Source: Anaerolineales bacterium (GTDB taxonomy: Bacteria > Chloroflexota > Anaerolineae > Anaerolineales > UBA4823). Taken from it: a DNA stretch of 64,000 nt. Location: the NCBI GenBank assembly GCA_041736465.1, contig JBGSTO010000706.1, positions 6,588 through 70,587 of the forward strand, written 5' to 3'. Positions 10,277 through 13,502 of this stretch are shown here, piece after piece. The first letter of the stretch is position 1. The number at the start of each line of letters is the position of its first letter. The notes below the pieces were generated by a model. It was not told the origin of the DNA. It searched no databases and saw only the letters and a program-made list of their open reading frames with translations. The position numbers were made by a program, and so were the translations under genes.

Positions 10277-11881
10277 GTGTCTCATCCTGCTCCCCAAGAC
10301 AGATCGCTTTTGCTGTCCGTCAATGCCGGAATACAGCTGCGCAGATGGATTTTTATCCTGATGCTGAGCTTCGGGCTGGCTGCCTGCCAGGGCACGCTCG
10401 AACCTGCCTCTGGTGTGCAAACGCCCCCTCCTTCTACGACTGCTGCCTCCTTACCCGAAAAAACTCCGACTACGGAACCTGGCTCGTCGCCCACAATGAG
10501 CCCAACGGCATCTATTGATGCTTCCCCCTCCGGGTTAGAGACTGCAACGCCGCCGGCAGATGCGTTCCCCGGCATTCAGGGGCCGAGTGCGCAGTACACG
10601 CTGACCGCAGTTCTGAATTACTCCGCTCATTACATTACCGTCGACCAGCAAATCGCCTATACCAATCGATCCAGCGATGTGCTGACAGACCTGCGCTTGA
10701 TGGTCGAGCCGGCTTATTACCCGGGATCATTTCGCCTCAATGGCATCACCGTTCGGTCCGGACCGCAAATTGGAGAACCGGTCTGGGATACTGGTCAAAT
10801 CTCGCTGTCGCTGCTATCTCCATTGTCGCCAGGTGAAAGTATAACGCTGGCATTGTCGTATGAAATCAACCTGCCGAAGCCGTCGCCATCCGAAGAAACG
10901 CGCCCGGTCCCATTCGGATACACCGAACGCCAGACCAACCTGGTCGACTGGTACCCATTCATCCCTCCGTACCGGGATGGAAGCGGCTGGTTGGCCAACA
11001 AAGCCTATTTTTTTGGCGAGCACCTGGCATATGAAGCCGCGAATTTCACCGTCAATCTACGCATATCGGATGAGAATTCTTTCCACGTCGTCGCTGCCAG
11101 TTCCCAGGCGCAAGTAGACGGCGAGTGGCGAAGATATCAGATCAACGATGCGCGTGGCTTTGCTTTTTCGGTGAGCACGCAGTACCAGGTAGAAAGCCTG
11201 CAAGTAGGAGCCGTTCAGGTCACCAGCTATACCTTTCCCTTTAATCCAACTGCCGGGGAAGCCGTTTTGGATACCACAGCCAAAGCGGTGGCTTTGTACA
11301 GCGAGCTTTTTGGCCCTTACCCGCATGACACTCTGGCGGTGGTCGAAGCAAACTTCCTGGATGGGATGGAATACGACGGGCTGTACTTTCTGAGTAATGG
11401 CTTCTACAATCTCTACCAGGGCACGCCGGCAGAATACCTGATCGCCATCGCTGCGCACGAGACCGCTCACCAGTGGTTTTACGGGCTGGTGGGCAACGAT
11501 CAGGGAAATGAACCCTGGTTGGATGAGGCCTTATGCACCTACAGCGAACGCCTGTTTTTTGAGCGCTACTACCCGGAAGCCCTGGACTGGTGGTGGACTT
11601 ACCGCATAAACTACTACCAACCGCGCGGCAGCGTGGATGGTAGCATCTATAATCCGGGGGGGTACCGGTCTTACCGGGATGCAGTCTATCTCAATGGGGC
11701 TGTCTTCATGGAAGAGCTGCGGAAGACCATTGGCGAGCAGGCATTCCGTTCTTTTTTACGCGACTACGTAGATCAGAATCGAAATAAGATTGCTACCGGT
11801 GAAGATTTTTTTGACCTGTTGAAGCAGTACACAACGGTAGACCTGAGCGAGATCAAAGCGCGCTTCTTTTCAGCGCCTTAA
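10277..11881 (+). CDS. Lipoprotein M1-family (gluzincin) zinc metallopeptidase
   Basis: The lipobox is FILMLSFGLAACQG, followed by a Pro/Thr/Ser-rich linker. HETAH plus 18 residues plus E (HETAHQWFYGLVGNDQGNEPWLDEAL) equals the M1 HEXXH-X18-E signature. The gene starts 10 nt after the vWA stop. The start codon (GTG 10277) is uncertain. Confidence 0.8.
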   Translation: MSHPAPQDRSLLLSVNAGIQLRRWIFILMLSFGLAACQGTLEPASGVQTPPPSTTAASLPEKTPTTEPGSSPTMSPTASIDASPSGLETATPPADAFPGIQGPSAQYTLTAVLNYSAHYITVDQQIAYTNRSSDVLTDLRLMVEPAYYPGSFRLNGITVRSGPQIGEPVWDTGQISLSLLSPLSPGESITLALSYEINLPKPSPSEETRPVPFGYTERQTNLVDWYPFIPPYRDGSGWLANKAYFFGEHLAYEAANFTVNLRISDENSFHVVAASSQAQVDGEWRRYQINDARGFAFSVSTQYQVESLQVGAVQVTSYTFPFNPTAGEAVLDTTAKAVALYSELFGPYPHDTLAVVEANFLDGMEYDGLYFLSNGFYNLYQGTPAEYLIAIAAHETAHQWFYGLVGNDQGNEPWLDEALCTYSERLFFERYYPEALDWWWTYRINYYQPRGSVDGSIYNPGGYRSYRDAVYLNGAVFMEELRKTIGEQAFRSFLRDYVDQNRNKIATGEDFFDLLKQYTTVDLSEIKARFFSAP

Positions 11882-11955
11882 GGGCTGCACTTAATGATGG
11901 TTTATTTAACTCATTGATATTTAAAGAGTTAATATATCGTAGTATTCGTAGGGGG

Positions 11956-12253
11956 TGTGGATATGTGGAGAACCTTGTTTTCAGTCAAATTCACCCTCAG
12001 TGATATGGGAAGCAGCAGCAGTACACCCCACATTTACGGTTAAGGAGGTGTGTTTTTATCCCCAGGCGGAACGGGATGAAACGCGAGAAAGATTGGTGAG
12101 AATCGCCATCCCACACAGGAGCGCGGCTATATCGGGGAAGGGAAAAAAGACCCCCCATATATGGGGGTGGGCGGGCAGGTCATTTTTAGCACAAAATAGC
12201 CAGTTTTCCCCAGATTAGAGGATTTATCCACAGTTTTTCGCGAGTTATCCACA
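11956..12253. promoter_or_regulatory. Cluster of DnaA-box motifs in a 550-bp non-coding region
   Basis: There are two perfect TTATCCACA boxes, at 12224-12232 and 12245-12253, in direct orientation and 21 bp apart. There are three one-mismatch boxes: TGTGGATAT 11956-11964, TGTGGAGAA 11964-11972 (both on the opposite strand) and TTATCCCCA 12056-12064. Confidence 0.6.
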
Positions 12254-12357
12254 TCTGGCGGTGTGCGGGGGGACTTTCGGGTGTTTTTCTTAACCCTATA
12301 TATGGGGGTATCCTTGTCACATATAGATCGCCTATCGATAGTGTATGTGTTCAATTC

Positions 12358-12386
12358 TTGACGAGATTATTTTTCCGGTTTATGAT
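12358..12386 (+). promoter_or_regulatory. Sigma-70-type promoter for the ArsR-like gene
   Basis: TTGACG (12358-12363), a 17-nt spacer, then TATGAT (12381-12386), about 45 nt upstream of ATG 12432. Confidence 0.5.
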
Positions 12387-12417
12387 TAGATAATTGTCTA
12401 ATTAGATATATATCTAA
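12386..12417 (+). promoter_or_regulatory. Two abutting 16-bp palindromes (candidate ArsR-type operators)
   Basis: TTAGATAATTGTCTAA (12386-12401, arms TTAGA/TCTAA) is immediately followed by TTAGATATATATCTAA (12402-12417, a perfect palindrome). Both lie between the -10 and the start codon. Confidence 0.45.
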
Positions 12418-12431
12418 CCGATCGAGGTCGC

Positions 12432-13502
12432 ATGCGAGACGTAGAGATAAAGAAAACCTGGGATACAGGCAGCGCATATGATTTCTTTGCCAGCTTGCTC
12501 GTGCTGCATGACCCTGGCTTATTCGGCCTGCGCGCCTCGTGGGCTGCTGGCGTCCGGTCGCGTTTGCAGCTGGATGAGCGCCAGTTACTGGACGATTTGA
12601 TTCCAACGATCGGAGTACCGATAGCGTGGATTCTGTCGCTCCCAAATTCGCGCGACGCTTCTGCTGCTCTTTCGGCGTTGCAGCAAATCTCACCTTCGGA
12701 ACGCATGTTCAAACTCAGCAATCTTCTTCGCCTGGATAGCCGGCTAACCCAGCGGTTAAACGCCATAGCAGCGGCAGGAAAGTGGCAGGCAGAAGACCTG
12801 GATGCCCTGAAAGACGCCTTTGGCACGCATAAGGCGCCTAAAGAACGGTATCTAAAAACCTATTTGCAAGCCTGCGTGCACCCAGAAATCACCGGCGAAC
12901 GCCTGCTTGGCGCTTTGCAGTCTTACTATCAAAATTTCTTTACGGAAGAGGAAAGACATCTTCTGCCGCTTCTGGAACAAGGGCTGGCGCAGGCGCAGTC
13001 AAAAGCCGAGCAGATGAACGTTCAAGATTTGATGGTTGACCTATCCCAGGGCGTTCACCCGGCGCTGCCCGCAAAGGTATCCACCGTGATCTTCATCCCC
13101 TCGGTCTGGATCACGCCCTACGTCATCATTCACGAATTCCCGGACAGCCGCCTGGGGTTCCTGTTTGGAGCACGCCCCGACCATGTCTCCCTGGTACCGG
13201 GTGATGCAATCCCGGATGCTACACTGCGGGTGCTTAAAGCTCTGGCGGATCCGACGCGGCTAAGGATGCTGCGCTACCTGGGGGAGCAGTCTTTCACGGT
13301 AGCGGAGCTGTCGCGAAAACTGCGCCTGCGCCCACCGACCGTTGTTCACCATTTCAACATTCTGCGCCTGGCTGGTTTGGTGCACATTGCTTTGCAAGAG
13401 AGCAGTGAGCGGCGCTACAGCCTGCGCCGCGAAGGGATCCCCGTGGCATTCGAAAGCCTGGAGCAGTTCCTGCAGCCAGGAGAACCCGGGAAAGGGACTT
13501 AA
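12432..13502 (+). CDS. ArsR-family winged-helix regulator with a long N-terminal domain of unknown function
   Basis: The C-terminal LKALADPTRLRMLRYLGEQSFTVAELSRKLRLRPPTVVHHFNILRLAGLV is a typical ArsR/SmtB HTH. The preceding ~260 aa have no motif I recognise. Confidence 0.8.
   Translation: MRDVEIKKTWDTGSAYDFFASLLVLHDPGLFGLRASWAAGVRSRLQLDERQLLDDLIPTIGVPIAWILSLPNSRDASAALSALQQISPSERMFKLSNLLRLDSRLTQRLNAIAAAGKWQAEDLDALKDAFGTHKAPKERYLKTYLQACVHPEITGERLLGALQSYYQNFFTEEERHLLPLLEQGLAQAQSKAEQMNVQDLMVDLSQGVHPALPAKVSTVIFIPSVWITPYVIIHEFPDSRLGFLFGARPDHVSLVPGDAIPDATLRVLKALADPTRLRMLRYLGEQSFTVAELSRKLRLRPPTVVHHFNILRLAGLVHIALQESSERRYSLRREGIPVAFESLEQFLQPGEPGKGT

Follow-up and report, generated by a model that had tools for sequence, protein, structure and literature searches.

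The stretch of DNA considered here, referred to as the window, spans 64,000 nucleotides (C401:6588-70587) of an Anaerolineales bacterium (Chloroflexota, class Anaerolineae) whose assembly consists of 733 contigs and 6.29 Mb with a GC content of 58%. Labels for genomes (G...), loci (L...), and contigs (C...) are our own, and the genome of the window is G000. A 550-bp gap in the window is bounded by two genes on the plus strand, one for an M1-family peptidase (10277-11881) and one for an ArsR-like protein (12432-13502). The ArsR-like product consists of 356 aa with the ArsR-type helix-turn-helix at its C-terminus, and its gene is followed by one for an MFS transporter. The gap harbors a cluster of binding sites for the initiator protein DnaA (DnaA boxes) together with a predicted DNA unwinding element (DUE), and the gap is very probably the chromosomal replication origin (oriC) of this bacterium. 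The features of the gap are as follows.

11886-11936: AT-rich stretch, 78% A+T, predicted DUE.
11937-11951, plus strand: DnaA-trio-like 3-nt repeats TCG TAG TAT TCG TAG; the consensus in relatives is TCG TAG TCG TAG TAG.
11952-11955: GGGG spacer from the trios to the boxes, mostly GGGC in relatives, the 4-nt G/C spacer being conserved.
11956-11972, minus strand: abutting DnaA box pair, TGTGGATA-TGTGGAGAA as read on the plus strand (equal to TTCTCCACA + [A]TATCCACA on the minus strand).
11956-11964, minus strand: one-mismatch DnaA box ATATCCACA.
11964-11972, minus strand: one-mismatch DnaA box TTCTCCACA.
11993-12040: two degenerate G/C-clamped palindromes, ACCCTCAGTGATATGGG and CCCCACATTTACGG in the window; the alignment gives CCCCATATATGGGGG and CCCCAGATATAGGGG as the consensus of relatives.
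12056-12064, plus strand: one-mismatch DnaA box TTATCCCCA.
12152-12167: perfect 16-bp palindrome CCCCCATATATGGGGG, at least 75% conserved in the 23-locus alignment.
12204-12212, plus strand: weak box TTTTCCCCA with two mismatches, the first of three direct boxes about 20-21 bp apart.
12224-12232 and 12245-12253, plus strand: perfect DnaA boxes TTATCCACA with starts 21 bp apart, anchor sites of predicted high affinity.
12294-12309: second intact palindrome CCCTATATATGGGGGT.
12358-12417, plus strand: probable promoter/operator of the ArsR-like gene, a promoter-like TTGACG-17-TATGAT with two abutting 16-bp palindromes, a neighboring feature.

The density of DnaA boxes sets the gap apart from the rest of the window. 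Boxes with at most one mismatch number five per 550 bp in the gap compared with a window mean of 0.156 and a next-best count of two, which amounts to about 32 times the background. The Poisson probability of such a cluster is about 7e-7 per position and about 8e-5 across the whole window. Two perfect boxes occur within 600 bp of each other at only three places in the 6.29-Mb assembly, and the cluster of the gap is the joint-best DnaA-box cluster of the genome. A first-pass annotation of the window had listed five boxes with at most one mismatch, all of which are present at the coordinates given there. The gap was also described as lacking a convincing open reading frame (ORF) and as richer in A+T than its flanks, and both descriptions are borne out. 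The sole ORF of the gap (87 aa, 11955-12218) has no Pfam match, and GC is 0.39-0.42 at both gap ends versus about 0.55-0.60 in the flanks. Conservation within the gap takes the form of short motif blocks with variable-length spacers rather than a codon pattern. A protein-coding gap is rejected on the basis of the ORF without a Pfam match and this non-codon-like conservation, and a known RNA is rejected on the basis of an Rfam scan of the gap at E ≤ 1, which gave no match. The annotation further named 12358-12417 as the most AT-rich stretch and explained it as the promoter and operator of the ArsR-like gene. The explanation stands, but the equally AT-rich stretch at 11886-11936 was overlooked, and with it the unwinding module at 11886-11972.

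The module at the left end of the gap consists of an AT-rich stretch, trio-like repeats, a G/C spacer, and a box pair. The AT-rich stretch overlaps the least stable 45-mer of the 64-kb window (11901-11946), with a nearest-neighbor dG of -46.4 against a mean of -68.1 and a standard deviation (sd) of 4.7, a difference of 4.6 sd. An AT-rich stretch is found at the equivalent position in 23 aligned relatives. The GTAG nearest the boxes is invariant and the 3-nt register of the repeats is kept in 21-23 loci, and the columns of the box pair are nearly invariant across the order. On the plus strand, the module of the window reads TCGTAGTATTCGTAG-GGGG-TGTGGATA-TGTGGAGAA. The position and strand of the repeats agree with those of the 3'-GAT-5' DnaA-trios of Bacillus subtilis (PMC8287927 supplement). 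The trio 3'-GAT-5' has been published as the most frequent one in the position beside the box, which the invariant box-proximal GTAG fits.

The definition of the basal unwinding system (BUS) relies on three elements (PMC8287927): a box with at most two mismatches and an optional abutting second box with at most four mismatches; a spacer of at most 16 bp from the box to the first trio, typically with a G/C cluster of about 4 bp; and at least three consecutive 3'-NAN-5' trios with the consensus 3'-GAT-5'. In the window, the boxes TTCTCCACA and ATATCCACA have one mismatch each, and their starts are offset by 8 nt as in B. subtilis. The spacer is GGGG, and the distance from the distal box is 12 nt, which is the value in B. 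subtilis, the modal value being 13. The trios of the window, read outward from the boxes, are TAG TCG TAT TAG TCG. TCG stands at every second or third trio position in the window and in most of the order; loci L144 and L192 and genome G037 carry three to five canonical trios, while most of the order has TCG interruptions. Deviant trios without a central A were anticipated by the authors of the rule themselves (PMC8287927).

The element is conserved well beyond the window. A DNA search of 40 relatives revealed three blocks of the gap with 75-90% identity across genera, their order kept and their spacing similar. Alignments of nine and then 23 loci yield a layout of about 420 bp that is common to the 23 loci and to five further complete or near-complete genomes. 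The first half of the layout consists of the AT-rich stretch, TCGTAGTCGTAGTAG, GGGC, the box pair TGTGGATA-TGTGGATAA, and one or two CCCCATATATGGGG-type palindromes. The second half consists of a convergent box pair, a palindrome, three direct boxes about 21 bp apart of which the last two are perfect, and a final palindrome. Every part of the layout is found in the window. Both perfect boxes are also present in homologous loci of relatives that were retrieved without using the box motif, and the spacer consensus between them, GTTTTTCGCGAG, is likewise conserved. In the alignment of relatives, the weak box at 12204-12212 reads TTTTCCACA or TTATCCACA with invariant T and CC columns, and the box at 12056 is one half of a convergent pair, TTATCCACA-N7-TGTGGATAA. 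The first-pass annotation had set conservation in syntenic regions as a check on its proposal, and the boxes are kept in syntenic and non-syntenic relatives alike, which favors an origin.

Copy number was assessed with a sequence-only conservation model of the 61-nt left block. Matches were obtained in 201 of 251 Anaerolineales genomes (150 of 173 among those of high quality) and in 80 of 90 genera, and nearly all matched genomes have exactly one. The single match in the genome of the window is C401:18504-18561, which corresponds to window positions 11917-11974. Genomes without a match cluster in a few families, and these genomes may have diverged past the model or may have had their match dropped by the stricter filters of large searches. 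The gene order M1 peptidase, element, ArsR-like gene, and MFS gene is common in the family of the window without being universal, and at other loci an MFS gene, a vWA gene, a candidate tRNA gene, or dnaA lies beside the element. As the flanking genes vary while the element stays, the element is independent of its neighbors. A minus-strand tRNA-like sequence (GCCGAAGGTGGGAATCGAACCCAC...), a candidate by sequence, is located about 60-140 bp to the right of the last box at L280 and L281 (G100 and G177; family f7).

Linkage to dnaA and dnaN is usual but not required for oriC, and it is absent from the genome of the window. The dnaA gene is located on contig C148 and dnaN on C500, unlinked to each other and to the locus, and neither gene has a DnaA box with at most one mismatch within 1.5 kb in this genome. 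An origin beside dnaA or dnaN in this genome is rejected owing to the lack of boxes within 1.5 kb and to the single module match, which lies elsewhere. Relatives display closer linkage. In the closed genome G037, the module is located at 4,313,366-4,313,415 and the minus-strand dnaA ends at 4,313,827, with three direct boxes between them; about 130 bp separate the last of these boxes from the 3' end of dnaA. At L114, L187, L104, and L175, dnaA likewise adjoins the element with its 3' end, on the equivalent side. The order dnaA-element-dnaN is found at L134 (Chloroflexota) and L149 (Thermus), where the unwinding end points toward dnaN as in B. subtilis, and dnaN lies 4-7 kb from the unwinding end at L182, at L089, and in G039. 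Elsewhere in the relatives, dnaA is 116 kb to 2.5 Mb from the element. Outside Chloroflexota, the box-pair pattern also has matches (in Deinococcus, Thermus, Clostridia, Corynebacterium, and others), most of them linked to dnaA and dnaN, and hence the pattern retrieves genuine origin regions. Judging from these homologues, the element of the gap is a descendant of an ancestral dnaA-oriC-dnaN origin that rearrangements separated from both genes; because its homologues in relatives are linked to dnaA and dnaN, it is best read as the ancestral origin left behind as the two genes moved. Separation of dnaA from dnaN is unusual among bacteria. The two genes are non-adjacent in the genome of the window and in nine out of nine relatives checked, and they come closest in G037, at about 8 kb.

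The GC skew of G003, G022, and G017 was sampled only about 200-400 kb either side of the element and that of G067 coarsely, and G039 is the sole complete genome sampled end to end with contiguous origin-region sequence. Along the window's own contig, the cumulative curve reaches its minimum at 16-18 kb, and the element occupies 18.5-19.0 kb; the skew is -0.030 to the left and +0.017 to the right. In G017, which belongs to the family of the window, six bins of -0.04 to -0.07 precede a pre-element bin of -0.002 and the element's 20-kb bin of +0.053; the three bins that follow are positive, and the final two before the contig ends dip slightly below zero. G003 has its minimum at 735 kb and the element at 783 kb, and the curve is nearly flat between the two and rises steeply exactly from 783 kb. 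G022 reaches its minimum at 1158 kb, and its slope roughly triples at the element, located at 1258 kb. The negative run of the closed genome G067 ends at 235-430 kb and the element is at 505 kb, a coarse agreement, with dnaA at 3.07 Mb, nowhere near any negative-to-positive switch. G039 has its cumulative maximum (terminus) at 1.45-1.49 Mb, directly across the chromosome from the element. The G039 element harbors four perfect and five one-mismatch boxes, by far the best cluster in 470 kb including the skew minimum, and no box cluster was found at that minimum. When the five element-to-switch distances are combined, the probability of such proximity by chance is about 6e-4. On the skew check proposed in the first-pass annotation, the sign switches at or near the element in its own contig and in G017, and the minimum is offset in G003, G022, and G039. 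The annotation had also taken the lack of a flip in gene orientation as evidence against oriC, a point that carries little weight. A crude count of long ORFs detects almost no strand bias either side of clear skew switches in relatives, and a gene-orientation flip is rejected as an origin test in this lineage for the lack of a usable bias.

Low-GC islands (0.40-0.43 compared with about 0.52 for the genome) are present in G039 at about 100-150 kb and 2,490-2,510 kb of G039:C1 (L019, L060, L067-L069). The islands sit between the global skew minimum and the element, and the irregular skew around the origin of this genome may be due to them.

The case for oriC is built on sequence anatomy, conservation, one copy per genome, dnaA linkage in some relatives, and GC-skew polarity. 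The gap unites a box cluster beyond chance, an AT-rich DUE beside the boxes, and a single copy conserved among relatives, as expected of an oriC, and neither the box-cluster scan nor the left-block model detects a stronger origin candidate in the genome. The predicted oriC is of the ordinary DnaA-dependent kind, and its location in this sparsely studied group was not found described; a literature search found no paper on Anaerolineales or Anaerolineae origins. From the arrangement of the sites, we infer DnaA binding, the site of unwinding, and origin firing at the gap. DnaA would occupy the perfect boxes (12224 and 12245) and the weaker boxes (12204 and 12056). DnaA-ATP at the left boxes (11956-11972) would oligomerize over the GGGG onto the TAG/TCG trios of the plus strand (11937-11951), and the oligomer would open the AT-rich element (11886-11936) for helicase loading. 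The distal right-hand boxes would probably assist via looping or cooperative oligomerization, as in the incC region of the B. subtilis origin, and the G/C-clamped ATATAT palindromes could be origin-specific accessory sites for a further factor.

Several observations weigh against an origin at the gap. The contig of the window is only 74 kb long, and its skew minimum is weak evidence alone. Left of the element, G003 and G022 have a zone of 48-100 kb in which the skew is already weakly positive. The global minimum of G039, at about 2.425 Mb, lies 316 kb before the element, and the element itself is located only at a sharp local minimum. The published rule of at least three consecutive NAN trios finds at most two consecutive trios in the window. 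Some parts of the layout are decayed in the window compared with the consensus, namely the partner of the box at 12056 and two of the four palindromes. The variable left-hand skew offsets are attributed here to rearrangements near the origin, which is the weakest part of the case.

The first-pass annotation had left the choice between an origin not linked to dnaA and a DnaA-control locus, and the evidence strongly supports the former and not the latter. As a control locus, the gap would be a datA/DARS-like titration or reactivation site, or a DnaA-regulated promoter of the ArsR-like/MFS pair or of the M1 peptidase operon. The boxes are indeed located 105-200 bp upstream of a good promoter of the ArsR-like gene, the ArsR-like/MFS pair is the right-hand neighbor in many family members, and the genome has at least one other DnaA-box array that looks promoter-proximal (C269:12049-12111, upstream of a DUF92 gene). 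However, the element persists with unrelated neighbors (G003, L117, L126, G100/G177, and G037), and it is single-copy and conserved across the order. It carries the full module of AT-rich stretch, trios, spacer, and boxes, and DnaA-control sites are not known to require an unwinding module. A datA/DARS-like site would consist of boxes without the module, away from the origin, whereas here the module is present and the locus is at or near the skew switch. The element coincides with changes in GC-skew polarity, its homologue in relatives occupies the canonical place between or beside dnaA and dnaN, and the genome offers no stronger origin candidate, which makes a control locus quite improbable.

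About equally improbable is a former or secondary origin, in which the ancestral oriC sequence is retained while initiation now occurs mainly elsewhere, e.g. 50-300 kb to the left. The offsets of the skew minima in G003, G022, and G039 (48, 100, and 316 kb) are consistent with this idea, as is a second array of three perfect boxes at 724.1 kb in G003, near the 735-kb minimum. The offset nevertheless differs per genome and is zero in G017 and in the window's own contig, a pattern that asymmetric rearrangements near the origin would yield, and in G003 and G022 the element marks the exact point at which the skew slope steepens. Two membrane-protein genes flank the 724-kb array, whose gap measures about 50 bp and holds no AT-rich element or trios, and the minimum of G039 lacks a detectable box cluster. 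The module is near-invariant across 80 genera, which argues for continued selection. An integrated plasmid or mobile-element origin, or a chance cluster, has only a minute probability. DnaA boxes occur in plasmid origins too, and pairs of perfect boxes are present at two other places in the genome (C467 and C29). Yet the element is single-copy and chromosomal with ordinary cellular flanking genes and order-wide conservation, the C467 and C29 clusters lie inside ATCTGCG-type repeats without the module, and the probability of a chance cluster in the window is the low value given above.

The other box arrays of the genome differ from the gap in composition. The perfect-box pairs at C467:1650-1920 and C29:1624-1830 are intergenic and reside in inverted arrays of short ATCTGCG/ATCTGTG repeats (e.g. 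TTATCCGCAGATTTCGCAGATGAACGCAGATAA); they are rejected as an origin, being part of such repeat elements, lacking the module, and remaining unmatched by the model. At C269:12049-12111, an array of three or four boxes in direct orientation, spaced by 21 bp, occupies an approximately 50-80-bp gap, and the gene immediately downstream encodes a DUF92 integral-membrane protein. The homologue of this array is L238:1102-1152 (G003:C12:724102-724152), 59 kb from the G003 origin. The C269 array has no AT-rich element and no trios, and its sequence suggests a DnaA-regulated promoter or small titration site rather than an origin.

In the 6.29-Mb genome, the palindrome pattern CCC.ATATATGGGG has only two occurrences, both inside the gap, and the sole copy in the 460-480 kb sampled in G003 and G022 is at the element. 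Each origin harbors two to four G/C-clamped ATATAT palindromes at fixed positions; they are missing in one family (G039 and L148), where box-like sequence replaces them. A dedicated origin-binding factor would be the simplest idea for the partner of the palindromes. A more specific proposal is that the CCCCATATATGGGG palindromes bind a lineage-specific regulator or architectural protein and that the TCG trios reflect an altered single-strand code of the Anaerolineales DnaA, the two together forming a distinct variant of the unwinding system. This proposal is tentative and rather less likely to be right than wrong. The minus strand of the window at 12140-12168 has CTTTTTT after CCCCCATATATGGGGG, a terminator-like arrangement seen in this genome only. 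The palindrome at 12152-12167 is rejected as a minus-strand terminator, the T-run being absent in relatives.

To the right of the final palindrome, the promoter/operator at 12358-12417 is probably not part of the origin. The feature is absent where the right neighbor differs (G003, L117, and L126). Its abutting 16-bp palindromes, TTAGATAATTGTCTAA and TTAGATATATATCTAA (12386-12417), are kept in several genera wherever the ArsR-like gene adjoins the origin.

Sludge, sediment, and subsurface communities are rich in Anaerolineales, a group that is known chiefly from metagenome bins and has few genetic tools. A single-copy origin motif that is easy to recognize provides a reference point for growth rates from read depth, for the orientation and checking of assemblies, and for replicating vectors. 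If the variant with palindromes and TCG trios is real, the origin calls beside dnaA in databases would be misplaced for the order. The TCG trios provide a natural test of the strictness of the central adenine, and palindromes confined to the origin point to an accessory factor. The arrangements form a series from dnaA-oriC-dnaN to dnaA-oriC and then to oriC alone with the module almost unchanged. As the module stays through this series, the view of the unwinding module as the ancestral core of bacterial origins is supported.

Among known systems, the datA and DARS1/2 loci of Escherichia coli resemble the element in being DnaA-box clusters outside the dnaA region. They do not mark a GC-skew switch and are not known to contain an unwinding module, whereas the element combines such a module with a position at or near the switch. 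The oriC of E. coli lies between gidA/mnmG and mioC, far from dnaA, and origins displaced from dnaA are well known. The element shares with E. coli oriC the displacement from dnaA and dnaN, the combination of high-affinity and weaker boxes, and an AT-rich DUE at one end. It differs in the arrangement of its boxes, in the absence of 13-mer repeats and GATC clusters, and in the intact ancestral module. The nearest entry in the same bacterial order is the DoriC/Ori-Finder entry ORI94030346 of Anaerolinea thermophila UNI-1, for which a module is given at genome positions 420-460 (PMC8287927 supplementary table), a position presumably beside dnaA. The entry was likewise obtained by computation alone with DnaA boxes and trios sought, and its match is weak: the only box has two mismatches, the spacer measures 16 nt, and the trio score is 7 (PMC8287927). 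Judged against this table entry only, the element of the gap is a far better module, and its distance from dnaA is in most cases 0.1-2.5 Mb.

The closest known counterpart is B. subtilis incC. The incC region of B. subtilis oriC, with its basal unwinding system, has DnaA boxes 6 and 7, a GC-rich spacer, DnaA-trios, and an AT-rich DUE (Richardson 2016; PMC6669920, PMC8287927). Its module reads, 3' to 5', AATAGGTGT, TTAGGTGT, CCGG, and GATGATAATGAA... (also written GATGATAAT...; PMC8287927 supplement) and, on the other strand, ...TAGTAG-GGCC-TGTGGATT-TGTGGATAA (PMC8287927). Unlike incC, the element has neither dnaA nor dnaN as a neighbor in this genome and is known from its sequence; TCG (3'-GCT-5') takes up every second or third trio position, C replacing the central A, and two to four G/C-clamped ATATAT palindromes are present that are undescribed for B. 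subtilis. The two systems nevertheless share a 9-nt box, an abutting 8-nt box, a 4-nt G/C spacer, 3-nt repeats that begin with TAG (3'-GAT-5'), and an AT-rich stretch, all in equal order, orientation, and spacing. The element also has a second group of boxes at a distance of about 270 bp, comparable to the distal incC boxes that act by looping in B. subtilis, and in relatives the element is found downstream of dnaA, the place of incC in B. subtilis.

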